From NCBI GenBank assembly GCA_964016885.1, contig OZ024757.1, forward strand, positions 6,262,001 through 6,326,000: 64,000 bases of DNA. Direction: 5' to 3'. Shown here piece after piece: positions 14,272-64,000 of this stretch. Numbering within the stretch: position 1 is the first letter of the stretch; each line of letters opens with the position of its first letter. This DNA is from Eledone cirrhosa (lineage: Eukaryota). Made by a program: the position numbers and the translations under genes. Below the pieces are notes generated by a model that did not search any database, had not been told where the DNA came from, and worked only from the letters and a program-made list of their open reading frames with translations.

Positions 14272-17200
14272 ATGGAGGCTGCAGAAATAGTTAGTGTAGA
14301 AGACCAAATTATAAGTAGACAGTTACCCGAAGTAGTATATGACAGGGAGGATTTGGTGATTCCACTACAACAGACTATTAGGGAAAATAAATCTAAGGTA
14401 AAAGTGTTAACTGAAATCCCCTTGAAGAACGATATCACAGTACCATGCCAAATATTATATACACCTGTTCCTCCAGTAGTAAACACTGTAAAAGTTACTG
14501 TAGAAGACACTGTAGAATATTACCCTCTACCATTAAAATATATTGTACCCATAAAGGATGGTACTATGAGCTATATCCCACGTATATTAACACTAAAGTA
14601 CACACCACCAACTGGCTGTTGTTGTATGGTACACTGTCAATCAGTGGTCACTGATATCGATGGGTTTAACCAAAATGTGGTAATTGCCACATTACCATTT
14701 GACAATCAAATTCTGTTCTTCTCACCCTCTAGTGTTGCAATAAAAACTCTTGAAGTCGGCTTTCATAAAATTTCATATTATAAAGATAGTAGATTCCTAG
14801 GTTTTAAATTATTAGAAAAAAAAATATATATGGTAAATTGGATTGAAAAAACATATACTGAGCAATTTGAGGTGAAACATGAGCCGAGAAGTATAGCCAT
14901 AGGGCCAGACGATCGTGTTTTAGTAATATTTTATAATTTAACCGTTATAATCTGTTATGATCTGAATGGTCATAAATTATTTCAATTTCACCTCCATTCT
15001 AAGGACATTCCTGCTGACATCACCGTTTTCAGGAATTATTTTTATGTATTTCAAGGGCAGGTTATTTATAAGATCTCCTCAATAGGTGGCATCTCTCAAA
15101 AGGATATTGGGATAAACACTCAATATATTACATTTGACTTAAATAATATGTTTGTATCTGATGTTTCTGGTCAGATATATAGTTTTAAGACAAAAAAGTG
15201 TTGGCCAAAGATGTCTTATTATCAAAAGACCCAAACACCCTGTCTGAATGACAAAATTAATATAACAAGATATATGAGATTCTACCTATGTCACGATCTT
15301 CTGTATTAGTTGTATACATGGATCTGAAAGCTATACTATACACTTACAGTGGGACAGAATTGTGTAGAGGTAAGGAATTAATATTTAAGTCCAAACCATC
15401 TAGATTTTGCAGAATAGACTCCAGCAAATTTCTGGTTCTATTCAATAAAACTAGAACTATACAACATATACAACATATTACATGTCCTGAACTAAAAGAA
15501 GGTAATCTCTATTGTTTAGATAAGAATTACATTCAAATATGTCATGTAGTATTAGATAGGTTTATGGCTTTGACCACTTGTGGAATGAACGAGGTCCATA
15601 AATTAAAGATTGAGGAAGACAAGGTAGAATGTGAAAACCTAAAATCATTAGAACATGGTGATGTCAGTATAGCTACAACTCCAACTTATTTTGTTATTTT
15701 AGATAAGAAATATCGTAAATTAATATTTCATTCTAGTTTCGGTGAAGAAGAACTTTTCGAAACATATTTTGATTTTAACAGCCGTCCCAATCATATCTAC
15801 TCAGACACTTTTTACTTGTATATTATCTTCCCTACACTCTCTATTATGGCATGTTATGATATTTATGGAGAATATAAATGGAAATTAAAACTTCCGGTAG
15901 CTTCTCGCTTTTGTAATGGTATTTGTGAAGGAACTATATATCTATTTGACCATAACCTAGGGAGTATTCTTGTTTACAACTGTGAATCATCCATTTGTCA
16001 TTTAAAAAAGTTAAATCCTTATATCAGAAATCCAACGATACGACACAAAGAAAAGGATGATAATAAAATTGCAATTGCTGAAACATGTTATCTACCCAAC
16101 GGACAGTTGGTGGTGTCTGACATAAATAATTCTTGCTTATTATACATTTCTAAGAAAGAAGGAGAAGAAATAAAAGTGTTATCTACATTATATCTGCCAT
16201 CTGTAGCTACAGATATATGTAGATGGGGTTCTAGTCAATTGGCTGTCACATTACCCCTAGAGAAAGAATTAAGGCTTATTGGAAACCTATCAAAAACAGT
16301 TAGAATGATATCATTAAAGCACCCTTATGTACAGATATGGAAGTTTGGTGAGGGTAGAATTGTTGGTTATTGTGACAACAAACCAAACTATATAGACATT
16401 GTATCTGTTCAAAAACATAACCAGGGTGAAGTAATGTCTAGGGTCCCTATTCCATGTCAAATAAACTCATTAGCAATAGACAATGATACATTCAATATAG
16501 TTATGGTAGCTAAGAAAAAAATGTTTATGTACGAAACTATATCAAAAAAGGGTCAACGAGGTATTTTAAGTGGTCCCAGCTCTATTTCGGAGCCCAACTT
16601 TAAACCACTTTCTGATCTATATGGTGGATGTATTGATAACACTTGTCATTATCTGATAGACAAAGATGGTGTGTTGGCTATAAATAGGCATAACTCTGTG
16701 ATGGTAGATCTGGTGACAAGGAAACAGTCTAACATGTTTATTGACATGGTAGATGTATTTTCTAGAAACATCTGTGTCAGTGAAATGTTTTCTTCTACAT
16801 TATATCTGCAGGATCTGACAGTTTCTGATAAAGCTAAGGAATTGTTACCTCCTCCTTGTTTGGAAGACACAAGACCAGTGGGTGGTGGTGGTCATTATGG
16901 TGGGAAAGAGAAGAGTTTGGTTGTTGTTACTGAAAATAACCTGATTGCATTATATGACGACAATAACAACAACATTAAAATATTAACATTTGATGGTCAA
17001 ATTGTTGACTTTATCAAATTAAATAACAATCTCCCTAAACATATATGTCGTTGGGGGTCAAACACACTGGTCATTACCACTGGTACTGACAAGCTGTTAA
17101 CTTTAGAAGTGGAGTTTCCATTGTATTTGGTAAGTTATAAGACAGACCATAGCTATTATGGTATAGCTTCTTTGTTAGACAACCAACTAGTGTGTAGTAG

Positions 17201-18935
17201 TGTAGATAGAGGTAGAGATAGAGATAGACATAGATTGTTTGTCATTGATATTGATGAAATACATTCAACTGTGGATGTAAAGAAAGAAATAAACATACCT
17301 GAGTTCATCAATGTCGTAGAATATAGTTATGGTAGAGGTCCTCCCATCTCTGATATTGTAGTTAATGTTAAGAATGAGATTATATTTCACAATGGTAGAT
17401 ATATCACTTTCTTCAGATATAAAACTGGTTATTTACATTCACACAGACAATATTATGAAGACATACCACTAAACACCTGTATAACAACAGATGACAATTA
17501 TTTGTACATTTATGGACAGTGGAGATTATATAACTTCAATAATGACAGAGATTACCAGATTGTTTGTTTGTCACAGACTGGTAAATACAGGGAAATATTT
17601 TTAAATAAAAGACATTATAGACATAAGATATCTTTCACCAGTATTAACTGTAAAGGTCCAAGGTTTGTTGGATATGACTGGAGGAGAAGGTGTTTATATG
17701 TTGAAGGTTTATATGAACTTAATAGGGAAACATTCCCTGTTTGTCGTGTAAAAACAGACCAAAGCTCTGTTGAAATAAAAGATATGGACATCACTGATGA
17801 TGGACAAACAGTTGTCTATGAAATAACCAATTATGGTAATGTTAAAATATTTCAGAGAGATGGGGAACTGTTATGTCACAGAAATATTGAAACTTTAGTT
17901 GGTGGGGTCTGTTTTACAGAAGAAGGAGATTTTATTATGGTTACACTTCCTAATGAATATCAATTAATTCAACTAGAGAAGGAAGATTTGACAGAATATC
18001 ATGTTTGGTCCAGTTCTCTACCTTATGGTCGTATATCGAGGATAGAAGAAAATATTTACTTCTGTCGACATATCAACTTGACAGAATATCATAAGATAAA
18101 GATTGATGACAACAAACTGAATGTTCTGGAGCATGGGACATTACATCTGGATTGTCATCTGCCTCAAGCAAGATGTACTACTACTACTTCAGGTGAAATA
18201 ATTAACAATTTACTAGAGGTGAGACGTGGTAATTACAAGGCAGAGTGTATCTCAGGAAATGATGAAATATCAGTGAGATTTTTACCACATGTTATGAACA
18301 TGTCTTATCTTTCCTATCCCATGTATTCTGACATATCTAAATATACTGAGAGATGTCAGGTTGATGAGGAGGAATATTTTGAGGAATATGAGAGGGACAT
18401 GTTCAACTACAGTAAACTAATTATGTTACATGACAATGTGGCAGTGTTCATGTTGAGGAATATTATCACAGTAACAACAACAGAAGGTAAAATAATCCAT
18501 GGCAAAATATTACCAGAAACACCAATAGACATTTGCAGATGGTCAGATAATTGTTTTATTCTCCTTTACTATCATAAAATGGTGATTTACAGAGAAAATA
18601 TTTCTCACATTAAAAAGGTGAAACTTGAGAAATACTACAACCATATCTATAAAAAGAATCGCAACCAACTTGTGTGTACTTTTGATGGTGATGGTGATAT
18701 GTTTAAATATAACAGTGAGGTATATGGTGGTGGTGATGGTGGTGGTGGTATGTTTAAATATAACAGTGAGGTATATGGTGGTGGTGGTGGTATGTTTAAA
18801 TATAACAGTGAGGTATATGGTGGTGGTGGTGGTGGTATGTTTAAATATCACCCTGGGGACTCTCCTTATCTAGATATAGTTTGTATCTACAGTGGAACAG
18901 TGAAATACAGTGTTGAAGTGTCTGTTAGAGACGAG
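14272..18935 (+). pseudogene. Tandem beta-propeller (NHL/TolB-like) repeat protein, copy A, split by a 10-bp deletion into ORFs 14272-15309 and 15288->gap
   Basis: Near-identical to copy B. GAGTACCCTA is missing between 15264 and 15265. The second ORF stays open to the N gap. Confidence 0.75.
18699..18848 (+). repeat. In-frame coding tandem repeat (MFKYNSEVYGGGG.. x3 plus a partial unit) in copy A
   Basis: atgtttaaatataacagtgaggtatatggtggtggt is repeated; copy B has about 1.5 units at ~19700-19760. Confidence 0.9.
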
Positions 18936-19135
18936 NNNNNNNNNNNNNNNNNNNNNNNNNNNNNNNNNNNNNNNNNNNNNNNNNNNNNNNNNNNNNNNNN
19001 NNNNNNNNNNNNNNNNNNNNNNNNNNNNNNNNNNNNNNNNNNNNNNNNNNNNNNNNNNNNNNNNNNNNNNNNNNNNNNNNNNNNNNNNNNNNNNNNNNNN
19101 NNNNNNNNNNNNNNNNNNNNNNNNNNNNNNNNNNN
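18936..19135. other. Assembly gap (200 N)
   Basis: Run of N. The round length suggests a scaffolding placeholder of unknown true size. Confidence 0.99.
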
Positions 19136-22100
19136 AGATATGGTCTGTCATATATATTATATGATATTAGTTGTGGTGTTTCTAATGTCCTGACTAACTG
19201 TTCTTCTCTGTACCAACAGATAGAACTGTACCACCTCCACCCCCTCCTCCTCTCTGACTTGACAACAACAATGTCTTCACTTGATGTGACACCAACTGCT
19301 GAGACTCTCTCCTCCTCCACTACCTCCTCCTCTAACCTGTGTACCTCCTCCCTTAACCTGTCTTCCTCCTTCCTTAACCTGTCTTCCTCCTCCTCTAACC
19401 TGTCTACCTCCTCCTTTAACCTGTCTACCTCCTCCCTTAACCTGTCATGGACCTCCTTCATCTTCTCATTGTCCCTCCTCAACCTCTTCAACTCCTCCTC
19501 CACCCTCCTCCTCTCCCCCTCCACCCTCCTCCTCTCCCCCACCACCCTCTCCCTCTCCCTCACCACCCACTCCAACTCCCCCTTCACCCTCTCCAGCTCC
19601 GCCACCTTCTCCTCGTCTCTAACAGACACTTCAACACTGTATTTCACTGTTCCACTGTAGATACAAACTATATCTAGATAAGGAGAGTCCCCAGGGTTAT
19701 ATTTAAACACATCATCATCACCACCACCACCACATACCTTACTGTTATATATAAACATATCACCATCACCATCAAAAGCACACACAAGTTGGTAGCCATT
19801 CTTTTTATAGATACAGTTGTAATATTTCTCAAGATTCACCTTTTTAATGTGAGAAATATCTTCTCTGTAAATCACCATTTTATGATAGTAAAGGAGAATA
19901 AAACAATTATCTGACCATCTGCAAATGTCTATTGGTGTTTCTGGTAATATTTTGTCATGGATTATTTTACCTTCTGTTGTTGTTACTGTGATAATATTCC
20001 TCAACATGAACACTGCCACATTGTCATGTAACATAATTAGTTTACTGTAGTTGATGATGTCCCTCCTATATTCCTCCAAATATTCCCACTCATCAACCTG
20101 ACATCTCTCAGTATATTTAGATATGTCAGAATACATGGGATAGGAAAGATAAGACATGTTCATAACATGTGGTAAAAATCTCACTGACATTTCATCATTT
20201 CCTGAGATACACTCTGCCTTGTAATTACCACGTCTCACCTCTAGTAAATTGTTAATTATTTCACCTGAAGTAGTAGTAGTACATCTTGCTTGAGGCAGAT
20301 GACAATCCAGACGTAATGTCCCATGTTCCAGAACATTCAGTTTGTTGTCATCAATCTTTATCATATGATATTCTGTCAAGTTGATATGTCGACAGAAGTA
20401 AATATTTTCTTCTATCCTCGATATACGACCATAAGGTAGAGAACTGGACCAAACATGATGTTCTGTCAAATCTTCCTTCTCTAGTTGAATTAATTGATAT
20501 TCATCAGGAAGTGTAACCATAATAAAATCTCCTTCTTCTGTAAAACACACCCCACCAACTAAAGTTTCAATATTTCTGTGACATAACAGTTCCCCATCTC
20601 TCTGAAATATTTTAACATTACCATAATTGGTTATTTCATAGACAACTGTTTGTCCATCATCAGTGATGTCCATATCTTTTATTTCAACAGAGCTTTGGTC
20701 TGTTTTTACACGACAAACAGGGAATGTTTCCCTATTAAGTTCATATAAACCTTCAACATATAAACACCTTCTCCTCCAGTCATATCCAACAAACCTTGGA
20801 CCTTTACAGTTAATACTGGTGAAATATATGTCATGTCTATAATGTCTTTTATTTAAAAATATTTCCCTGTATTTACCAGTCTGTGACAAACAAACAATCT
20901 GGTAATCTCTGTAATCCAAGTTATATAATCTCCAGTGTCCATAAATGTACAAATAATTGTCATCTGTTGTTATACAGGTGTTTGGTGGTGTGGTATCATA
21001 ATATTGTCTGTGTGAATGTAAATAACCAGTTTTATATCTGAAGAAAGTGATATATCTACCACTGTGAAATATAATCTCATTCTTAACATTAACTACAATA
21101 TCAGAGATGGGAGGACTACCAAATCTATAGTCTACGACATTGATGAACTCAGGTATGTTTATTTCTTTCTTTACATCCACAGTTGAATGTATTTCATCAA
21201 TATCAATGACAAACAATCTATGTCTATCTCTATATCTATCTATATCTCTATCTCTCTCTACACTACTACACACTAGTTGGTTGTCTAACAAAGAAGCTAT
21301 ACCATAATACCTATGGTCTGTCTTATAACTTACCAAATACAATGGAAACTCCACTTCTAAAGTTAACAGCTTGTCAGTACCAGTGGTAATGACCAGTGTG
21401 TTTGACCCCCAACGACATATATGTTTAGGGAGATTGTTATTTAATTTGATAAAGTCAACAATTTGACCATCAAATGTTAATATTTTAATGTTGTTGTTAT
21501 TGGAGTCATATAATGCAATCAGGTTATTTTCAGTAACAACAACCAAACACTTCTCCCCCCCAACATAACCACCACGACCACCCACTGGTGTTGTGTCTAC
21601 CAAACAAGGAGGAGGTAACAATTCCTTAGCTTTATCAGAAACTGTCAGATCCTGCAGATATAATGTAGAAGAAAACATTTCACTGACACAGATGTTTCTA
21701 GAAAATACATCTACCATGTCAATAAACATGTTAGACTGTTTCCTTGTCACCAGATCTACCACCACAGAGTTATGCCTATTTATAGCCAACACACCATCTT
21801 TGTCTATCAGATAATGACAAGTGTTATCAATACATCCACCATATAGATCAGAAAGTGGTTTAAAGTTGGGCTCCGAAATAGGGCTGGGACCACTTAAAAT
21901 ACCTCGTTGACCCTTTTTTGATATAGTTTCGTACATAAACATTTTTTTCTTAGCCACCATAAATATATTTAATGTATCATTGTCTATTGCTAATGAGTTT
22001 ATTTGACATGGAATAGGGACCCTAGACATTACTTCACCCTGGTTATGTTTTTGAACAGATACAATGTCTATATAGTTTGGTTTGTTGTCACAATAACCAA

Positions 22101-24201
22101 CAATTCTACCCTCACCAAACTTCCGTATCTGTACATAAGGGTGCTTTAATGATATCATTCTAACTGTTTTTGATAGGTTTCCAATAAGCCTTAATTCTTT
22201 CTCTAGGGGTAATGTGACAGCCAATTGACTAGAACCCCATCTACATATATCTGTAGCTACAGATGGCAGATATAATGTAGATAACACTTTTATTTCTTCT
22301 CCTTCTTTCTTAGAAATGTATAATAAGCAAGAATTATTTATGTCAGACACCACCAACTGTCCGTTGGGTAGATAACATGTTTCAGCAATCGCAATTTTAT
22401 TATCATCCTTTTCTTTGTGTCGTATCGTTGGATTTCTGATATAAGGATTTAACTTTTTTAAATGACAAATGGATGATTCACAGTTGTAAACAAGAATACT
22501 CCCTAGGTTATGGTCAAATAGATATATACTTCCTTCACAAATACCATTAGAGAAGCGAGAAGCTACCGGAAGTTTTAATTTCCATTTATATTCTCCATAA
22601 ATATCATAACATGCCATAATAGAGAGTGTAGGGAAGATAACATACAAGTAAAAAGTGTCTGAGTAGATATGATTGGGACGGCTGTTAAAATCAAAATATG
22701 TTTCGAAAAGTTCTTCTTCACCTAAACTAGAATGAAATATTAATTTACGATATTTCTTATCTAAAATAACAAAATAAGTTGGAGTTGTAGCTATACTGAC
22801 ATCACCATGTTCTAATGATTTTATTTTTTCACATTTTACCTTGTCTTCCTCAATCTTTAATTTATGGACCTCATTCATTCCACAAGTGGTCAAAGCCATA
22901 AACCTATCTAATACTACATGACATATTTGAATGTAATTCTTATCTAAACAATAGAGATTACCTTCTTTTAGTTCAGGACATGTAATATGTTGTATATGTT
23001 GTATAGTTCTAGTTTTATTGAATAGAACCAGAAATTTGCTGGAGTCTATTCTGCAAAATCTAGATGGTTTGGACTTAAATATTAATTCCTTACCTCTACA
23101 CAATTCTGTCCCACTGTAAGTATATAGTATAGCTTTCAGATCCCTGTATACAACTAATACAGAAGATCGTGACATAGGTAGAATCTCATATATATTGTTA
23201 GGGTACTCTATATTAATTTTGTCATTCAAACAGGGTGTTTGGGTCTTTTGATAATAAGACATCTTTGGCCAAAACTTTTTTGTCTTAAAACAATATATCT
23301 GACCAGAAACATCAGATACAAACATATTATTTAAGTCAAATGTAATATATTGAGTGCTTATCCCAATATCCTTTTGAGAGATGCCACCTATTGAGGAGAT
23401 CTTATAAATAACCTGCCCTTGAAATACATAAAAATAATTCCTGAAAACGGTGATGTCAGCAGGAATGTCCTTAGAATGGAGGTGAAATTGAAATAATTTA
23501 CGACCATTCAGATCATAACAGATTATAACGGTTAAATTATAAAATATTACTAAAACACGATCGTCTGGCCCTATGGCTATACTTCTCGGCTCATGTTTCA
23601 CCTCAAATTGCTCAGTATATGTTTTTTCAATCCAATTTACCATATATATTTTTTTTTCTAATAATTTAAAACCTAGGAATCTACTATCTTTATAATATGA
23701 AATTTTATGAAAGCCGACTTCAAGAGTTTTTATTGCAACACTAGAGGGTGAGAAGAACAGAATTTGATTGTCAAATGGTAATGTGGCAATTACCACATTT
23801 TGGTTAAACCTATCAATATCAGTGACCAGTGATTTACAGTGTACCATACGACAACAGCCAGTTGGTGGTGTGTACTTTAGTGTTAATACACGTGGGATAT
23901 AGCTCATAGTACCATCCTTTAAGGGTACAATATATTTTAATGGTAGAGAGTAATATTCTACAGGGTCTTCTACAGTAACTTTTACAGTGTCTACTACTGG
24001 AGGAACAGGTGTATATAATATTTGGTATGGTACTGTGATATCTTTCTCAAAGGGGATTTCAGTTAACACTTTTACCTTAGATTTATTTTCCCTAATAGTC
24101 TGTTGTAGTGGAATCACCAAATCCTCCCTGTCATATACTACTTGGGGTAACTGTCTACTTAGAATTTGGTCTTCTACACTAACTATTTCTGCAGCCTCCA
24201 T
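19136..24201 (-). CDS. Single-exon ~1690+ aa protein with about six tandem NHL/TolB-like beta-propeller modules and a coiled-coil insert; 3' end lost in the gap (copy B)
   Basis: 5 kb open frame in AT-rich DNA. Recurring blade motifs every ~230-300 aa: LVTDIDRFNQNVVIATLP, KPSRFCRIDSSKFLVLF, VATDICRWGSSQLAVTLP, LPKHICRWGSNTLVITT, LVGGVCFTEEGDFIMVTLP, TPIDICRWSDNCFILLY; also CYLPNGQLVVSDINN. The fold is assigned from motif resemblance to molluscan TRIM C-terminal propellers, not from a search. Confidence 0.85.
19310..19615 (-). repeat. Purine-rich 21-bp coding repeats forming a heptad coiled coil (EEVDRLK / ERRRVEG)
   Basis: ttaacctgtc(t)..ctcctcc units at ~19330-19460 and ccaccctcctcctctcccc units at ~19500-19545. 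Confidence 0.85.
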
Positions 24202-27200
24202 TGTTTGTCTCTACTTCTACAACTGGTTATATATATGTATATATATGTGTGTGTGTATATGTGTTATGTGTATGAATGTAATTCCAAACACCTTCACAAT
24301 TTCAAAATTTTCAGATAAATTTACCAAATCTAAAATGAAATATAGGAAAAAGAAATATTGATTAGTTTTGTGAAAATATTAGTTTTTCAAATAAATGGAT
24401 TAATAAGAAAACATCATTTTCTCTAAATATATTAAATCCAGCTGTTTATTTGGCAAATATGATCAACAATGAGAATAATCACTAAAAATAAATGTTAACA
24501 AAGAAAAATATGATATTACATGTATTGTATGAAGAAAGTCCTAGTGAGAAAATGTAGTTACACAGAATATAGGTATTGCCAATGAATATATATAAGAAGT
24601 ATTGCCAACTTGGAGCACCCCCTGGTGCTCAAGTGGTCACACATGCCATTCAAACAAAGAAGGTGGCTTGGAAATAAGTCCTTCTTGCACTTGCAGGACA
24701 AGCAGTCATGAAAAGTCACAGCAGAGACGACAGTCAGGTGTCTAAAATTAAGACATGGGAAATATTTGGGGTTAAGCTGGAATCCAACTTCAGATCAACA
24801 AATATTTATGGGCTCATGCACAGCCAAGTTGGAAGAGGTATCAAGACTGGTGAGTGTAAGATCAGTCGGCTGATTTTGCAGACGTCATCGTACTACTTAA
24901 CTCAAGAGAAGGTGATCTCTGACATGCATTTGACAGATTTGATGCCAAGTGCTGCACGGCAGGAATGAAAATCAGTGATGCAAAGACTGAGACACTCATC
25001 CTCTCAAGGAAGCCTGTTTAGTGCACTCCACAAGTGAATGGAGTTACACCAAATGCTTCAGCATTCGGTCATTAGAAGAAAGGAGGTATGTGTGAAAGCT
25101 GAACTCGATATCTTCAATTTGTTTAGGTGCCAACCCTTAACTATCGTCATGAATCTTGTTTAATGATCGAAAGAATATGATTGCATATACTATTGGCTGA
25201 AATGGGGTTCCTTTGAAGGGTCTTTGGAGCAATGTTACTCAATAGAATGAGTAACTCGGAGATCAGAGAGTCACTCCAGGTAGAGCCGCTACTTCTCCGA
25301 ATTGAGAGATCTCAACTCTGATACTACAGACATGAGGTTAGAATGTCTCAGGAAAGAATTGTTGAAAAGATTTTATGAGCAAAGCCAACCATCAGGAGTA
25401 CCTGGGTAGACCCTGAGCAAGATGGTTGGATAACATCCATGAGCTTGGCTGGTTTCACTTGGGCATTCAGCTGGATCAGTTGGAGACAGTTGCTTCTGAC
25501 AGGACCCATTGGAAGGAGTACTTGAGAAATATTCCCCCACTGCCCTCCTCCCAGGAATATATCAGCAAAGAAGAATATATATATTATAAACCCCATTTGT
25601 AAGCCAAGGCAGCTAATCAACACAAGTTTAGGTGGTGTGGCTTTGAAATTCTCATGAGTATAAAATATATTTATGAAGTTTTAGTATTTTAATCTTTAAA
25701 ATGTTTTAAGTGTCTTTTAGAATATAGTTTTTGTTACACAACTCCATTACATAATGCTTTTTTACCATTTCATCTGTTTTCTTCTTTGCCAACTTATTCC
25801 TGATAGGGTCAGGGTGTAGAGTCCTCAAACTCTCCTTCCAGTGGGTCCTGTCAGAAGCAACCATCTCCAACTGATCCAGCTGCATGCCCAAGCACGTCTT
25901 GTTCGGGATCCACCCCTGTGTCTTTTGCTGGTTGTTTTACCCATAACATCTGTCCAGCGATTCTTTCCTGAGACATTCTAACCTCATGCCCAGAGTATTG
26001 GCGCTGTCATCTCTCAATTCAGAGAAGTAGTTGCTCTACCTGCAATGACTGATCTCTAAGCTATGCACTTTATCGAGTAACGTTATTCAAAAGACCCTTC
26101 GGAAGTATCCCATTCTAGCCCCATGCCTATAGTATCGGAGCTGTGATCTCTCAATTCAGAGAAGTAGCAGCTCTACTCGGAGTGACTTTCTGATCTCTGA
26201 GCTACACACTCTATCGAGTAACAATACTACAAAGACGCTTCGCAGGAACCTCATTCACGATTATATTTTTGGGGTCATTATCCAAGATTCATGACCCTAG
26301 GTAAGGGTTGGCATGAATGTCGAATTGAAACAGTGAGTTTGGCTTTTACTCCTTCCTACCTTCTGATTAATGAAGCTGGCATATTACTGTACCAGTCTTT
26401 GTAATTCTTACACTTAATTTAGCCTCTTGCCTACCATCACTCGTGAACATGGCCCCAAGATACTTGAACTTCTCTACCTGCTTCAGTGGAACTCCATTCA
26501 CATGTAGAGTACACTGCACTGGCTTCCATGAGAGGACAAGTGTCTCAGTTTTCACAGTACTGATTTTCATTCCAGCCATGCAGCACTCGGCAACAAACCT
26601 ATCAAGTGCAAGTCAAATATCATCTTCTGTCGAGTTAAATAACACCATGTCATCATCAAATTCCAGCCAAGTGATTTTACAGCCGCCAGACATGATACCA
26701 CTTCCAACCCAGCTGCGTATATCAATCCTGTTCATGTAAATAACAAACAGGAGAGTTGACAGTATACACCCTTGGTGGAGTCCAACTCCCATATTGAATG
26801 GTTTCTATTTAACACCATTTATCCCAACATAGATATTCAGGCATTGATATAGAGACATCAGGGCAGCAAGAAGTTGACTATCAATCACATACTCCTGTAC
26901 AGCCTACCACAGCAGGTGGCCAAGGAACGTAGTCATATGCCTTTTCAAAGTCAACAAAATATATGAGTATATACAGTATATATAATATTGTATGGACCTA
27001 ATAAAATAGTACATTTAACTTACGTATTTTATAATCACTTTCGTCGATTTCATTGGTTTTGTATTAGAAACTGGTAATTGGGAATCTGAAATAATGGAAT
27101 ATTATTGATAAAAACATTTTTATTTTTACATAAATGTAAGTAAAGTCTCAAAAATAAGTTTTAAATAACAAAAAAAGAAATTATGAATATAAAACTGATA

Positions 27201-27310
27201 TTATCATCATCACCATCATACATGTGTATTTCTGTGCTGGATAGGTTGGATGGATTGTTACAGACCAACCCAATATTTAATAAAAGCTACTGTCTTCTTA
27301 CAGACCGAAT

Positions 27311-27366
<56 letters not shown>

Positions 27367-55000: not shown

Positions 55001-58000
55001 TGCTTTTTGGGAGAGTTAAGCTCCAGCATGTTAAAAGTTGTTGATGATGATGGTGACAGAATGATATAGATAAAAACTTAAATAGAATGTTATCAATGTT
55101 GTTTATTGTGAAACAAATCTGTATCTTGACTTAGAAGAAAACATTGATTAGGTAAGGTCAAGTGTTCTCTTCATATTGATATATTAGAGAAGACACACAG
55201 CACTTATGTACATTCATTCTACCACACACCCACACAGAGTAACTTACACTCACACACATATACTAACACACCACAAATAATATGTTTATGGCTGAGTATT
55301 CCACAACCAGGCTTGTGTTTTTGATAATTCCATAACAGAATCATCATGTCAATATATATGACAGAGTAGATCATCATCACTGGTTTACATCCATTATTCC
55401 ACACTAGCATGGGTTAGACTTGTTGTCTTGTTGTGGGCAAGTCTGGTGACCATGTCTTGTTTGTACACAACTGATTTTAGCTTATTCTACAGCTGGATGT
55501 CCTTCCTAATGCCAACCTCATTTACAGTGTAGACTGGGTGCTTTTTGTCATGACACCTACATGACCATTTTACAGAGTGGACTGGGTGCTTTGTTGTGAC
55601 ACCTACACAACCACTTTACAGTGTGGACTGGGTGCTTTTTGTCATGACACCTACATGACCACTTTACAGTGAGGACTGGGTGCTTTTTGTCATTAAACCT
55701 ACACAACCACTTTACAGAGTAGACTGTGTTTTTTTTGTGACACCTACATGACTACTTTACAGTGCGGACTGGGTGCTTTTTGTTGTGACACCTACATAAC
55801 CACTTTATAGAGTGGACTGGGTGCTTTTTGTTGTGTCACCAACGCAACCACTTTACAGAGTGGACTGGGTGCCTTTTGTCATGATACCAACACAACCATT
55901 TTATAGAATGGACTGTGTGCTTTTTGTTGCGAAACCTACTCATCCACATTACAGAGTGGACTGGGTGCTTTTGTTGTAATTTGTGACATTCATTCTACCA
56001 CACACCCACACAGAGTAACTTACACTCACACACATATACTAACACACCAGAAATAATATGTTTATGGCTGAGTATTCCACAACTAGGCATGTGTTTATTG
56101 TAGTTCCATGACAGAATCATCATGTCAATATATATGACAGAGTAGATCATCATCACTGGTTTACATCCATTATTCCAAACTAGCGTGGGTTAGACTTGTA
56201 GTCCTGTTGTGGGCAAGTCTGGTGACCATGTCTTGTTCGTACAAAACTGATTTTAGCTTATTCTACAACTGGATGTCCTTCCTAACGCCAACCTCATTTA
56301 CAGTGTGGACTGGGTGCTTTTTGCATGACACATACACAAAAACTTTACAGAGTAGACTGGGTACTTTTGTTGTGACAACTACACAACCACTTTACGGTGT
56401 AGCCTTGGTGCTTTTTGCATGACACCTACACAACCACTTTACAGTGTAGACTGGCTGCTTTGTTGTGACACCTACACAAACACTTCAGGGAGTGGACTGG
56501 GTACTTTTTGTCATGACACCTACATGACCACTTTACAGTGAGTACTGGGTGCTTTTTGTCATGACATGGACACAACCACATTACAATGTAGACTGGGTTC
56601 TTTTTGTCATGACACCTACACAACCATTTTACAGTGTAGACTGGGAGCTTTGTTGTGACACCTACACAAACACTTCAGGGAGTGGACTGGGTGCTTTTTG
56701 TCATGACATCGACACAACCACATTACAGTGTAGACTGAGTGCTTTTTGTCATGACACCTACACAACCACTTTACAGTGTGGACTGGGTGCTTTTTGCATG
56801 TCACCTACATGACCACTTTACAGTGTAGACTGAGTGCTTTTTGTCATGACACCTACACTTCCACTTTACAGAGTGGACTGGGTGCGTTTTGTCATGATAC
56901 AAACACGACCACTTTACAGAGTGGACTGGGTGATTTTGTTGCGAAACCTACTCATCCACTTTACAGTGTGGAATGGGTGTTTTTGTCATGACACCTACAC
57001 AACCACTTTATAGAGTAGACTGGGTGTTTTTGTCGTGACGCCTACATGACCACTTTACAGAGTGGACTGGGTGCTTTTTGTCATGACACCTACACAACCA
57101 CTTCACAGAGTGGACTGGGTGCTTTTTTGTGACACCTACATGACCACTTTACAGTGTGGACTGGGTGCTTTTGTTGTGACACCTACATGACCACTTTACA
57201 ATGTGGACTGGGTGCTTTTTCTCAGGATATCTATATGACTACTTTACAGTGTGGACTGGGTGCTTTTTGTCATGACACCTACACATCCACTTTACAGTGT
57301 GGACTGGGTGCTTTGTTGTGACACCTATATGACTACTTTACAGAGTGGACAGAGTGCTTTTTGTCATGACACCTACACATCCACTTATACAACCACATTA
57401 CAGTGTAGACTGGGTGCTTTTTGTCATGACACCTACATGACCACTTTACAGTGAGTACTGGGTGCTTTTTGTCATGACATCGACACAATCACATTACAGT
57501 GTAGACTGAGTGCTTTTTGTCATGACACCTACACAATCACATTACAATGTAGACTGGGTTCTTTTTGTCATGACACCTACACAACCACTTAACAGAGTGG
57601 ACTGGGTGCTTTTTCTCAGAACATCTATATGACTACTTTACAGTGTGGACTGGGTGCTTTTTGTCATGACACCTACATGACCACTTTACAATGTAGACTG
57701 AGTGCTTTTTGTCATGACAGCTATACAACCACTTTACAGTGTGGACTGGCTGCTTTGTTGTGACACCTATATGACTACTTTACAGAGTGGACTGAGTACT
57801 TTTTGTCATGACACCTACACATCCATTTATACAACCACATTACAGTGTAGACTGGGTGCTTTTTGTCATGACACCTATACAACTACTTTACAGTGTGAAC
57901 TGGGTACTTTTTGTTGTGACACCTACATGACTACTTTACAGTGTGGACTGGTTACTCTCCGTCATGACACCTACACAACCACTTTACAGTGTAGACTGGG

Positions 58001-61000
58001 TACTTTTTGTTGTGACACCTACATGACCACTTTACATTGTGAACTGTGTGCTTTTTGTCATGATACCTACACAACCACTTTACAGTGTAGACTGGGTGCT
58101 TTGTTGTGACACCTACACAAACACTTCAGGGAGTGGACTGGGTACTTTTTATCATGACACCTACATGACCACTTTACAGTGAGTACTGGGTGCTTTTTGT
58201 CATGACATCGACACAACCACATTACAATGTAGACTGGGTTCTTTTTGTCATGACACCTACACAACCACTTTACAGTGTCGACTGGGTGCTTTGTTGTGAC
58301 ACCTACACAAACACTTCAGGGAGTGGACTGGGTGCTTTTTGTCATGACATCGACACAACCACATTACAGTGTAGACTGAGTGCTTTTTGTCATGACACCT
58401 ACACTTCCACTTTACAGAGTGGACTGGGTGCGTTTTGTCATGATACAAACACGATCACTTTACAGAGTGGACTGGGTGATTTTGTTGCGAAACCTACTCA
58501 TCCACTTTACTGTGTGGAATGGGTGTTTTTGTCATGACACCTACACAACCACTTTATAGAGTAGACTGGGTGTTTTTGTCGTGACGCCTACATGACCACT
58601 TTACAGAGTGGACTGGGTGCTTTTTGTCATGACACCTACACAACCACTTAACAGAGTGGACTGGGTGCTTTTTTGTGACACCTACATGACTACTTTACAG
58701 TGTGGACTGGGTGCTTTTGTTGTGACACCTACATGACTACTTTACAGTGTGGACTGGTTGCTTTTTGTCATGACACCTACACATCCACTTTACAGTGTGG
58801 ACTGGGTGCTTTGTTGTGACACCTATATGACTACTTTACAGAGTGGACAGAGTGCTTTTTGTCATGACACCTACACGTCCACTTATACAACCATATTACA
58901 GTGTAGACTGGGTGCTTTTTGTCATGACACCTACATGACCACTTTACAGTGAGTACTGGGTGCTTTTTGTCATGACATCGACACAACCACATTACAGTGT
59001 AGACTGAGTGCTTTTTGTCATGACACCTACACAATCACATTACAATGTAGACTGGGTTCTTTTTGTCATGACACCTACACAACCACTTAACAGAGTGGAC
59101 TGTGTGCTTTTTCTCAGAACATCTATATGACTACTTTACAGTGTGGACTGGGTGCTTTTTGTCATGACACCTAAATGACCACTTTACAGTGTGGACTAGG
59201 TGCTTTTTGTCATGACACCTACACAACCTCATTACAATGTAGACTGAGTGCTTTTTGTCATGACACCTATGCAACCACTTTACAGTGTGGACTGGGTGCT
59301 TTTGGTTCTGACACCTACACAACCACTTTACAGAGTGGACTGGGTCCTTTTTGTTGTGACACCTACACAACCACTTTACAGTGTCGACTGGGTGCTTTTT
59401 GTCACGACACCTACATGACCACTTTACTGTGTGGACTGGGTGCTTTTTGTTATGTCACCTACACAACCACTTTACAGTGAGGACTGGGTGCTTTTTGAAA
59501 TGACACCTACATGACCACTTTAGAGTGTGGACTGATTGCTTTTTGTCATGACACCTACATGACCACTGTACAGAGTGGACTGGGTGCTTTGTTGTTACAG
59601 CTACATGACTACTTTACAGTGTGGACTGGGTGCTTTTTGTCATGACACCTACACAACCACTTTACAGAGTGGACTGGGTGCATTTTGTCACGACACCTAC
59701 ATGACCACTTTACAGTGTGGACTGGGTGCTTTGTTGTGACAGCTTCATGACTACTTTACAGTGTGGACTGGGTGCTTTTTGTCATGACACCTACAAAAAC
59801 CACTTTACAGAGTGGACTGGGTGCTTTTTGTCACGACACCTACTAGACCACTTTACAGGGTGGACTGGGTGCTATTTGTCATGACACCTACATGACCACT
59901 TTACAGAGTAGACTGGGTGCTTTTTTTGTGACACGTACATGACCACTTTACAGTGTGGACTGGGTGCTTTTTATCATGACACATACACAACCACTTTACA
60001 GGGTGGACTGGGTGCTTTTTGTCATGACACCTACATAACCACTTCACAGTGTGGACTGGGTGCTTTTTGTAGTGACATCGACATGACCTCTTCACAGTGT
60101 GGACTAGGTGCTTTTTGTAGTGACACCTACATGACCACTTTACAGTGTGGACTGTGTGATTTGTTGTGACAGCTACATGACCACCTTACAGTGTAGACTG
60201 GGTGCTTTTTGTCATGACACCTACATGACCACTTTACAGTGTGGACTAGGTGCTTTTTGTCATGACACCTACACAACCCCATTACAATGTAGACTGAGTG
60301 CTTTTTGTCATGACACCTACACAACCACTTTACAGTGTGGACTGGGTGCTTTTGGTTCTGACACCTACACAACCACTTTACAGAGTGGACTGGGTCCTTT
60401 TTGTTGTGACACCTACACAACCACTTTACAGTGTCGACTGGGTGCTTTTTGTTGTGACACCTACACAACCACTTTACAGGGTGGACTGGGTGCATTTTGT
60501 TGTGATACCTACATGACCACTTTACAGTGTGGACTGTATATTTTTGTTGTGACACCTACATGACCACTTCACAGTGTGGACTGGGTGCTTTTTGTAGTGA
60601 CATCTACATGAACACTTCACAGTGTGGACTGGGTGCTTTTGTCATGACACCTACATGACTAATTTACTGTGTGGACTGGTTGCTTTTTGGGACAGTTAAG
60701 CTCCAGCTAGCATGTTAAAAGTTGTTGATGATGATGATGACAGATTGATATAGACAAAAACTTAAATAGAATGTTATCAATGTTGTTTATTGTGAAACAA
60801 AACTGTATTTTGACTTTGAACAAAACATTGATTAGGTAAGGTCAAATGTTCTCTTCATACTGATATATTAGAGAAGACACACAGCACGTATGTACATTCA
60901 TTCTACCACACACCCACACAGAGTAACTTACACTCACACACATATACTAACACACCATAAATAATATGTTTATGGCTGAGTATTCCACAACCAGGCATGT

Positions 61001-64000
61001 GTTTATTGTAATTCCATGACAGAATCATCATGTCAATATATATGACAGAGTAGATCATCATCACTGGTTTACATCCATTATTCCACACTAGCATGGGTTA
61101 GACTTGTTGTCTTGTTGTGGGCAAGTCAGGTGACCATGTCTTGTTCGTACAAAACTGATTTTAGCTTATTCTACAGCTGGATGTCCTTCCTAATGCCACC
61201 CTCATTTACAGTGTAGACTGGGTGCTTTTTGTCATGACACCTACATGACCATTTTACAGAGTGGACTGGGTGCTTTGTTGTGACACCTACATGACCACAT
61301 TACAGTGTGGACCGGGTGCTTTTTGTCATGACACCTACATGACCACTTTACAGTGTGGACTGGGTGCTTTTTGTCATGACACCTACACAACCACTTTACA
61401 GAGTAGACTGTGTTTTTTTTGTGACACCTACATGACTACTTTACAGTGTGGACTGGGTGCTTTTTGTTGTGACACCTACACAACCACTTTATAGAGTGGA
61501 CTGGGTGCTTTTTGTTGTGACACCTACACAACCACTTTGCAATAATGACTGGGTGCTTTTTGTCATGACACCAAAATATCAACTTTACAGAGTGGACTGG
61601 GTTCTTTTTGTTGTGTCACCCACGCAACAACTTTACAGAGTGGACTGGGTGCCTTTTGACATGATACCAACACAATCATTTTACAGAATGGACTGGGTGC
61701 TTTTTGTTGCGAAACCTACTCATCCACTTTACAGAGTGGACTGGGTGCTTTTGTTGTAATTTGTGACATTCATTCTACCACACACCCACACAGGGTAACT
61801 TACACTCACACACATATACTAACACACCACAAATAATATGTTTATGGCTGAGTATTCCACAACTAGGCATGTGTTTATTGTAATTCCATGACAGAATCAT
61901 CATGTCAATATATATGACAGGGTAGATCATCATCACTGGTTTACATCCATTATTCCATGGGTTAGACTTGTTGTCTTGTTGTGGGCAAGTCAGGTGACCA
62001 TGTCTTGTTCGTACAAAACTGATTTTAGCTTATTCTACAACTGGATGTCCTTCCTAACGCCAACCTCATTTACAGGGTGGACTGGGTGCTTTTTGCATGA
62101 CACATACACAAAAACTTTACAGAGTAGACTGGGTACTTTTGTTGTGACACCTACACAACCACTTTACAGTGTAGCTTGGTGCATTTTGCATGACACCTAC
62201 ACAACCACTTTACAGTGTGGACTGGCTGCTTTGTTGTGACACCTACACAACCACTTTACAGTGTAGACTGGGTGCTTTGTTGTGACACCTACACAAACAC
62301 TTCAGGGAGTGGACTGGGTACTTTTTGTCATGACACCTACATGACCACTTTACAGTGAGTACTGGGTGCTTTTTGTCATGACATCGACACAACCACATTA
62401 CAATGTAGACTGGGTTCTTTTTGTCATGACACCTACACAACCACTTTACAGTGTGGACTGGGTGCTTTTTGCATGTCACCTACATGACCACTTTACAGTG
62501 TAGACTGAGTGCTTTTTGTCATGACACCTACACTTCCACTTTACAGAGTGGACTGGGTGCGTTTTGTCATGATACAAACACGACCACTTTACAGAGTGGA
62601 CTGGGTGATTTTGTTGCGAAACCTACTCATCCACTTTAAAGTGTGGAATGGGTGTTTTTGTCATGACACCTACACAACCACTTTATAGAGTAGACTGGGT
62701 GTTTTTGTCGTGACGCCTATATGACCACTTTACAGAGTGGACTGGGTGTTTTTTGTCATGACACCTACACAACCACTTAACAGAGTGGACTGGGTGCTTT
62801 TTTGTGACACCTACATGACCACTTTACAGTGTGGTCTGGGTGCTTTTGTTGTGACACCTACATGACCACTTTACAATGTGGACTGGGTGCTTTTTCTCAG
62901 GATATCTATATGACTACTTTACAGTGTGGACTGGGTGCTTTTTGTCATGACACCTACACATCCACTTTACAGTGTGGACTGGGTGCTTTGTTGTGACACC
63001 TATATGACTACTTTACAGAGTGGACAGAGTGCTTTTTGTCATGACACCTACACATCCACTTATACAACCACATTACAGTGTAGACTGGGTGCTTTTTGTC
63101 ATGACACCTACATGACCACTTTACAGTGAGTACTGGGTGCTTTTTGTCATGACATCGACACAACCACATTACAGTGTAGACTGAGTGCTTTTTGTCATGA
63201 CACCTACACAATCACATTACAATGTAGACTGGGTTCTTTTTGTCATGACACCTACACAACCACTTAACAGAGTGGACTGGGTGCTTTTTCTCAGAACATC
63301 TATATGACTACTTTACAGTGTGGACTGGGTGCTTTTTGTCATGACACCTACATGACCACTTTACAATGTAGACTGAGTGCTTTTTGTCATGACAACTACA
63401 CAACCACTTTACAGTGTGGACTGGGTGCTTTGTTGTGACACCTATATGACTACTTTACAGAGTGGACTGAGTACTTTTTGTCATGACACCTACACATCCA
63501 CTTATACAACCACATTACAGTGGAGACTGGGTGCTTTTTGTCATGACACCTACATGACCACTTTACAATGAGGACTAGATGCTTTTTGTCATGACACCTT
63601 CACAACCACTTTACAGTGTGGACTGGGTCCTTTTTGTCATGACACCTACACAACCACTTTACAGTGTAGACTGGGTGCTTTGTTGTGACACCTACACAAA
63701 CACTTCAGGGAGTGGACTGGGTACATTTTGTCATGACACCTACATGACCACTTTACAGTGAGTACTGGGTGCTTTTTGTCATGACATCGACACAACTACA
63801 TTACAGTGTAGACTGAGTGCTTTTTGTCATGACACCTACACAATCACATTACAATGTAGACTGGGTTCTTTTTGTCATGACACCTACACAACCACTTAAC
63901 AGAGTGGACTGGGTGCTTTTTCTCAGAACATCTATATGACTACTTTACAGAGTGGACTGAGTACTTTTTGTCATGACACCTACACATCCACTTATACAAC
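46033..64000. repeat. 48-bp satellite (tttacagtgtggactgggtgctttttgtcatgacacctacatgaccac) with higher-order structure, running off the right edge
   Basis: Hundreds of diverged monomers. Recurrent non-monomer blocks start at ~46970, 47615, 49590, 53745, 55010, 55975, 60690 and 61755. Confidence 0.97.

Follow-up and report, generated by a model that had tools for sequence, protein, structure and literature searches.

Hypervariable loops on one face of a predicted NHL-type propeller in a multicopy gene family of the octopod Eledone cirrhosa

What pressure would cause two closely similar gene copies to differ most in a handful of loops of a single protein domain? The question is raised by a 64,000-nucleotide stretch of the Eledone cirrhosa genome (hereafter the window; positions 6262001-6326000 of contig C18, in a genome of 3.0 Gb). 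It carries a large inverted duplication whose arms, 94-98% identical in blocks, each hold one long coding exon: copy A and copy B. They belong to an apparently undescribed octopod gene family whose proteins, about 1,700 residues long and predicted to be chains of NHL-type beta-propellers, comprise about six propeller modules, a number taken from recurring blade motifs in the sequence, with only modules 3, 4 and 6 partly well modelled. The answer developed here is that diversifying selection very probably acts on the top face of module 4.

Differences between copies and the signature of selection

A first-pass annotation of the window had confined the variation between A and B to module 4 (and 6), chiefly within 16860-17640, and had quoted six pairs of divergent peptides, all of which are present in A and B as quoted. 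The B counterpart, expected at about 20820-21600, aligns as 20825-21599. In a pairwise alignment these intervals differ by 31 substitutions and by three indels (12, 3 and 3 nucleotides), all in frame, as had been claimed; in a multiple alignment of the same interval the indels are placed differently and 38 columns differ. The impression that flanking non-coding DNA is more alike also holds, with 44 of 3067 bases differing between the upstream arms (1.4%) against 4.0% per base in the interval (Fisher P = 3e-5). By Nei-Gojobori counts, module 4 (codons 861-1130) carries 34 nonsynonymous (N) and 1 synonymous (S) changes, and codons 1371-1527 carry 23 N and 1 S. Modules 3 (codons 601-860) and 5 (codons 1131-1370) are little changed, as first described, with 5 N and 2 S each, and codons 331-600 have 9 N and 3 S. 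Modules 4 and 6 thus stand out, but the word "confined" had missed a smaller N-terminal excess, 19 N against 2 S in codons 1-330.

Consensus error, which the annotation had named as a possible refutation, is unlikely, because at 27 of the 38 differing columns the A letter and the B letter each recur among 13 other copies. The description of A and B as near-identical paralogs stands as to their similarity; it was made without the frameshift in copy A, the scaffold gap between the arms, and the broken status of 10 of the 18 close copies now recognized in the genome.

Six variable patches of module 4 (Table 1) were defined from A and B alone, and alleles were then counted in eight other copies, where the same patches are variable. 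In the 61 patch codons these copies add 61 amino-acid alleles and a single synonymous one, or 0.44 per N site and 0.023 per S site; the 1207 codons outside module 4 hold 155 amino-acid and 37 synonymous alleles (0.055 and 0.046). When the two repeat-coded loops are removed, 35 amino-acid alleles and 1 synonymous allele remain in 33 codons (P = 8e-4).

Codon site models were fitted with indel codons and repeat loops masked, and with the copies L032 and L041 and the duplicates L037-L039 left out. For 11 copies, model M2a improves on M1a by a doubled log-likelihood difference (2dL) of 251, with a ratio of nonsynonymous to synonymous rates (omega, or dN/dS) of 24 on 3.9% of sites. The 2dL is still 160 when A and B are omitted, and it is 97 when six open-frame copies are used, so that the raised dN/dS of the module-4 loops, suspected from the first two copies, does not depend on them. 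Modules 1 to 6, fitted with separate trees, give 20, 2.5, 4.5, 56, 11 and 71. In neutral mosaic simulations, with trees shuffled every 40 codons, 2dL reached 15-27 in five of five; recombination can therefore explain the signals of modules 1 and 5, which were set aside, but not the total. Sites with posterior above 0.95 in most data sets include codons 871, 900, 1124, 1126, 1143, 1372, 1376 and 1379. Codon 1372 shows six residues among 12 copies, and the i, i+4, i+7 spacing of 1372, 1376 and 1379 falls on a low-confidence predicted helix entering the first strand of module 6.

Patchwork gene conversion among paralogs had been offered as an alternative to selection. Conversion probably does occur, as suggested by dS between B and paralog L035, which is spread across modules from 0.017 (module 3) to 0.315 (module 1); a neighbour-incompatibility test for recombination was not significant (P = 0.18, 71 informative sites). 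It would be insufficient, however, because conversion cannot create the four to six different residues found at single codons.

The location of these residues was examined on a model of B residues 860-1161, folded with 40 homologs (predicted local distance difference test score, pLDDT, 80; predicted template modelling score 0.81), which has 23 strands in six blades. Foldseek ranked the NHL domains of Brat, TRIM2, Thin and TRIM3 in places 1-11. VIA-align gave Z scores of 22.4 for Brat (root-mean-square deviation 3.6, 242 aligned), 22.1 for TRIM2 and, in effect a tie, 22.0 for a non-NHL six-bladed enzyme, with TRIM71 among the top matches. In the Atlas, 22 of 30 matches of a homolog's module 4 belonged to PF01436, and a profile search of Protein Data Bank sequences returned just weak TRIM71 matches (E 0.18-0.38). 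Module 4 is accordingly predicted to be a six-bladed NHL-type propeller. A viral fold search returned generic propellers (best E 5e-8), weaker than the cellular NHL matches, and nothing in it points to a viral origin.

Strands a to d were assigned from secondary structure and from the register of the NHL motif. The b-c and d-a loops were then taken to make up the top face as defined in PMC4015489. The claim that the changes lie in inter-strand loops on one face fits this predicted model well: A and B differ at 26 of 108 top-loop residues, at none of 46 bottom-loop residues and at 1 of 134 strand residues, so that they are not scattered over the structure. Among 11 copies, 53 of 108 top-loop, 1 of 46 bottom-loop and 13 of 134 strand positions are variable (35 of 85 top-loop positions when the repeat loops are excluded). 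The six closest copies diverge by 0.5% in the intron, 7.6% in top loops and 0.2% in strands. The 23 residues ahead of blade 1, which include patch 1, have pLDDT below 50 and are placed on the top face by topology only. Among the variant residues, Asp, Gly, Arg, Ser, Tyr and Asn are over-represented, and net loop charge on the top face ranges from -8 to +7 among copies, falling to -33 with a 429-nucleotide in-frame insertion in patch 1 of paralog L040.

Homologs in other octopods and the nature of the protein

Each word-based protein search returned 57 proteins, every one of which bears the name of Octopus vulgaris, O. sinensis or O. bimaculoides; an exhaustive HMMER search returned 26 representatives, and the 10 looked up comprised 7 from Octopus, 1 from Argonauta hians and 2 fragments without a name. 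Squid, cuttlefish and bivalves were absent from the named matches of these searches. The homologs, including O. bimaculoides LOC106873529, O. sinensis LOC118767965 and A. hians GAB1597371.1, are 33-50% identical over most of their length, and all are annotated as uncharacterised or hypothetical. Many O. vulgaris entries lie on one 29-Mb contig. No description of the family was found in a literature search that was thin on subscription journals and bioRxiv supplements, and genome-paper tables may mention it; a look through the readable supplements of PMC9712504 for six homolog gene identifiers found none of them.

In these uncharacterised proteins, as in the clade of A and B, the top face of module 4 is variable. 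In a quick tree of 45 rows, 14 copies of the E. cirrhosa genome group in a single clade, and 13 O. vulgaris proteins form a clade of their own. Among ten proteins of the latter clade, 59 of 90 top positions are variable versus 10 of 46 bottom positions (P = 2e-6), and sites with at least four residues number 32 in module 4 and 3, 0 and 1 in modules 3, 5 and 6. Across 40 homologs, entropy is 1.73 bits in top loops and 0.62 in bottom loops. At the protein level, the O. vulgaris expansion thus reads as an independent replicate of the module-4 pattern; the module-6 hot spot is specific to the E. cirrhosa clade.

Most of the Octopus and Argonauta homologs have about 100-150 additional residues at the N-terminus, a helical region missing from the E. 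cirrhosa clade, and a tblastn search of the window with ten homolog N-termini found no exon for it. Shorter proteins bearing this region numbered none among 67 candidates, and its weak Atlas likeness (0.80-0.82) to mollusc B-box clusters is a lead only. Within one recent O. vulgaris clade, P0021 and P0024 have a different N-terminal helical region from P0018, P0020 and P0030, one of the two being similar to the distant P0005/P0014 type. Conversion may have swapped domains here, or the gene models may be at fault.

In Pfam, no domain scored above cut-off in A, B or the propeller parts of 13 homologs. The NHL repeat, PF01436, reached 17.4 bits against a cut-off of 20 in module 3 only, and was not found in the 13 homologs. 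Neither RING nor B-box matched in A, B or the 13 homologs, nor was there a NACHT or NB-ARC match at E <= 1 (A, B) or E <= 0.5 (homologs). A self-BLASTP of protein P0001 gave no off-diagonal match that would indicate internal repeats. By hydropathy, copy B shows no signal peptide or transmembrane helix (19-residue maximum 0.34 in the first 40 residues and 1.42 overall), and all reading frames are closed between the upstream exon and its ATG; with neither hydrophobic leader nor membrane segment, the protein is likely cytoplasmic. The same observations speak against a secreted or surface pattern-recognition lectin.

The family is transcribed and spliced in one RNA-like sample, sequencing run X4. 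The kind of this run is not on record, and it was judged to be RNA from a splice joint and from its exon and intron depth: summed contig depth is 7,500-49,000 across the B exon and 27-120 in non-repetitive intron bins, while the DNA-like run X1 is flat over the same region. Several variants of patches 3 and 5 are present in X4, where expression is read at the level of the family.

Gene copies and the surrounding locus

A search of genome DNA gave at least 26 matches, for 20 of which sequence was retrieved. They resolve into 18 close copies, 88-99% identical and spread over C18, C2, C1, C25 and C27 plus five small contigs, along with a full-length but distant copy (L044, 61%) and fragments. Eight of the close copies (B, L027, L028, L030, L035, L036, L038 and L039) keep an open frame from the start as far as B codon 1527, and the others are broken by frameshift, stop or truncation; some single-base breaks may be assembly errors. 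Recurrent indels lie at B codons 876, 984, 1027, 1094 and 1492 and are nearly always multiples of three.

Some copies have features of their own. L036-L039 (C2:201817455-201987693) are four copies about 100% identical and 53-58 kb apart, all lacking 27 nucleotides in patch 1, and represent either a very recent tandem array or an assembly duplication. The broken copy at L032 (C27, about 17489000-17494000) is preceded by three or more tandem units that repeat the gene's 5' part (B codons about 137-486), and L041 has a fragmented 5' region resembling this. The patch 1 insertion of L040 (C18, about 10993580-10994000) is rich in Asp, Ser and Gly. Acidic repeat inserts also occupy a b-c loop in module 4 of O. 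sinensis P0006 and lie in module 6 of P0005/P0014; together with the Glu/Arg helix of B, such low-complexity inserts recur in loops of modules 4 and 6. A 51-nucleotide tandem repeat in module 6 (window 18683-18836) has three units in A, one in B and one to five in other paralogs, an in-frame expansion of a b-c loop.

Copy A is probably a pseudogene. In the DNA-like runs X1 and X2, about 30 of a depth of 450-490 lacks the 10 nucleotides deleted at 15263, a weak support for the deletion. Many A-specific letters of modules 2-3 are missing from X4, as expected if copy A is silent or missing in that sample. The final 65 or so residues of copy B, as judged from paralog L028, lie inside the scaffold gap. 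Since the arms are joined at this gap, the head-to-head adjacency and orientation of A and B depend on scaffolding.

Table 1. Features of the window, with positions counted from its first nucleotide
Feature	Position	Strand	Remarks
Module 4, copy A: predicted six-bladed NHL-type propeller with hypervariable top-face loops	16848..17705	+	
Module 4, copy B (residues 863-1150), modelled domain	20752..21615	-	
Patch 1: loop entering strand a, blade 1 (top face)	16860..16916	+	GGT-repeat, variable length
Codon 900, b-c turn of blade 1	16959..16961	+	S/D/Y/G/R among copies; selected; absent from first-pass annotation
Patch 2: b-c loop, blade 3	17200..17232	+	Hexamer-like microsatellite, Arg/Asp/Gly/Tyr; in-frame length variation
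Patch 3: d-a loop joining blades 3 and 4	17319..17345	+	
Patch 4: d-a loop joining blades 4 and 5	17454..17471	+	
Patch 5: end of strand b and b-c loop, blade 5	17517..17546	+	
Patch 6: d-a loop joining blades 5 and 6	17622..17633	+	Codons 1124, 1126 selected
Module 6 hot spot	18369..18402	+	B 20055-20088; B codons 1372, 1376, 1379, 1384
Copy B coding exon	19137..24201	-	1688 codons open, ATG to scaffold gap; lacks signal peptide; encodes about six propeller modules
Glu/Arg-rich repeat helix of copy B, inserted in module 6	19327..19620	-	Length varies among copies; nearly absent in L035/L036
Intron (GT-AG), 5' leader of copy B	24330..27023	-	Run X4 shows joint 24329-27024
Short upstream exon, read as non-coding	27024..27087	-	5' edge inferred from splice-acceptor-like sequence
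Copy A coding region, broken	14272..18935	+	Frame 1 ends 15309 (345 amino acids); frame 2 is 15261-18935, into gap
Site of 10-nucleotide deletion, copy A	15262..15264	+	Frameshift at codon 331, stop at codon 346
Left arm of inverted segmental duplication (copy A unit)	6328..18935	+	
Right arm of inverted segmental duplication (copy B unit)	19612..30343	-	Identity with other copies runs past 30343
200-N scaffold gap separating arms	18936..19135	.	

Comparison among paralogs shows many kb of upstream DNA to be part of the duplicated unit. A 21-bp minisatellite (64 units, window 30912-32237) is found at differing lengths in the upstream regions of L028, L030 and L031 too, and therefore belongs to that unit. 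Very high-copy repeats, with DNA contig depth hundreds of times that of the gene, lie within the 5' intron (window 25050-26670, and 11770-13650). Two short self-complementary (hairpin) elements, about 94% complementary, occupy 32546-32885 and 40979-41207, and a 48-bp satellite array lies in 46035-64000, with about 330 units in 47938-63984.

What the variable face may recognise

Several known systems resemble the octopod family in part. Module 4 is predicted to share the six-bladed fold of the TRIM-NHL proteins (Brat, TRIM2/3, TRIM71/LIN-41, Mei-P26, Thin), and in PMC4015489 the ligand-binding face of Brat is the face that varies here. TRIM-NHL proteins, however, have one conserved NHL domain after a RING, a B-box and a coiled coil, while in the octopod proteins about six propellers stand in tandem, RING and B-box are missing, and the top face is hypervariable. 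The signature itself is that of the SPRY loops v1-v4 of cytoplasmic TRIM5alpha, where, according to PMC11281341, positive selection and indels fall in a few loops of one binding domain and paralogs have expanded; TRIM5alpha differs in its beta-sandwich fold, its RING/B-box effector and its known capsid ligand. Diversifying selection likewise falls in the d-a and b-c loops atop the beta-propeller of the Podospora HNWD NLRs (het-d, het-e; PMC1805685). These have a NACHT plus HET effector and near-identical WD40 repeats under concerted evolution, whereas the octopod family has neither NACHT nor internal repeats detectable by BLASTP. In PMC8195603, lineage-specific expansions of DED/TRADD-N plus WD40 proteins in Branchiostoma and Crassostrea have variable propellers that are proposed to recognise invaders, and cephalopods have few or no such proteins; their death-like and TRADD-N domains were not detected in the octopod family. 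The family is assigned to none of these groups. As in other arms-race families, positive selection here falls on one predicted binding surface, and copies appear to be born and lost by lineage (at least 18, with 10 broken, and separate clades).

The explanation towards which we lean, by a little more than an even chance, is that the family encodes an intracellular variable receptor or restriction factor, the top face of module 4 having diversified against a fast-changing foreign protein. Segmental duplication would supply new copies, and point mutation, with in-frame slippage in the two repeat-coded loops, would supply loop variants. Selection would keep those variants that alter the binding surface of module 4 (and module 6), with modules 2, 3 and 5 as scaffold, and copies that lose their usefulness, copy A perhaps among them, would decay. 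Different copies would each be suited to their own version of a pathogen or parasite molecule and, since the clade lacks a recognisable effector domain, would act by sequestering that target or by recruiting an effector protein.

The statistical signal does not name the opponent. Germ-line or self/non-self conflict, with a selfish element, a gamete or sperm-storage interaction or a fast-evolving host partner, would produce equally real selection, and repeated lineage-specific expansion fits genetic conflict as well as immunity. We regard this as unlikely: for recognition at the cell surface the protein lacks both signal peptide and membrane anchor, and parallel use of the same face by separate lineages fits a recurring external pressure. 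A further account has the top face binding RNA, as Brat and TRIM71 do, and diversifying to keep up with RNA from viruses or transposons. In its favour, RNA-binding TRIM-NHL domains are the nearest folds with a solved structure, Arg and Tyr abound in the loops (13-16 Arg within the close clade), and the protein lacks a signal peptide. The top surface is the RNA site of Brat, and is positively charged there (PMC4015489); by net loop charge the octopod faces seem to differ from it, being negative in 9 of 16 copies examined. With Asp and Gly the most enriched variant residues, and with only 9-15% sequence identity to TRIM-NHL domains, RNA binding seems a rather doubtful account. The variant residue types and sign-changing net charge favour protein ligands over a fixed RNA site.

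That no selection is involved, and that tolerant loops in a relaxed, half-dead family have gathered slippage and clustered mutations reshuffled by conversion, is very improbable and largely refuted. Patches 1 and 2 are indeed GGT and hexamer repeats, scaffold omega is near 1, more than half of the copies are broken, and the neutral mosaics described above do yield false positives. But synonymous sites in the patches are not elevated, the signal survives masking of the repeat loops and restriction to open-frame copies, bottom loops (equally exposed in principle) are almost invariant, divergence in top loops is 15 times that of the intron, and the pattern recurs in O. vulgaris. It is scarcely credible that A and B are merely two haplotypes or mis-polished copies joined over a gap. 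The arms do meet at 200 N, and a flank divergence of 1.4% could be allelic; against this stand at least 18 copies on 10 contigs, the recurrence of both letters at most differing columns, and the several patch variants in run X4. Allelic A and B would in any case alter the label and not the selection signal.

It is important to emphasize several points that weigh against the receptor reading or the selection beneath it. The site models were our own GY94 implementation (F3x4, naive empirical Bayes) in place of the PAML analysis that had been proposed, and 63% of sites fit omega = 1, consistent with a scaffold that appears to be only weakly constrained over this short time. Between B and L035, omega is 0.41 in module 1 and 0.62 in module 2, 0.9-1.0 in modules 5, 6 and the module-4 core, and 2.2 in module 3, on 3 synonymous changes. 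In-frame indels in the two microsatellite-like patches of the six need no selection. Ten of the 18 close copies are broken, and the five copies on small unplaced contigs may be alleles and not paralogs. Collapsed contigs of the sequencing runs examined did not show the letters specific to A and B at several patch sites. Modules other than 4, and their arrangement, are suggested by sequence motifs, a four-module model being poor (pLDDT 58) with generic multi-propeller matches only in its fold search. No recognisable effector domain was found by Pfam in A, B or the 13 homologs, and the immune or pathogen-recognition role of the octopod family is drawn from analogy.

Cephalopod immune recognition is poorly known, and the octopus gene expansions described in the accessible literature are mostly neural (protocadherins, C2H2 zinc fingers, GPCRs). 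It can be proposed, tentatively and at somewhat less than even chances, that octopods own an undescribed intracellular variable-receptor repertoire: a tandem scaffold of six NHL propellers with an antibody-like hypervariable face on propeller 4, part of it coded by in-frame microsatellites as diversity generators, with independent expansions in several octopus lineages and no NLR or TRIM effectors. The same domain face diversifying in separate octopus lineages is among the clearest arms-race signatures obtainable from a genome, in a fold otherwise known mainly from conserved RNA-binding regulators. It suggests that NHL propellers can act as variable receptors, like LRR, SPRY and WD40 domains, and offers identified genes, precisely placed residues and a soluble domain of 300 residues as a way into the question of what octopus cells recognise.

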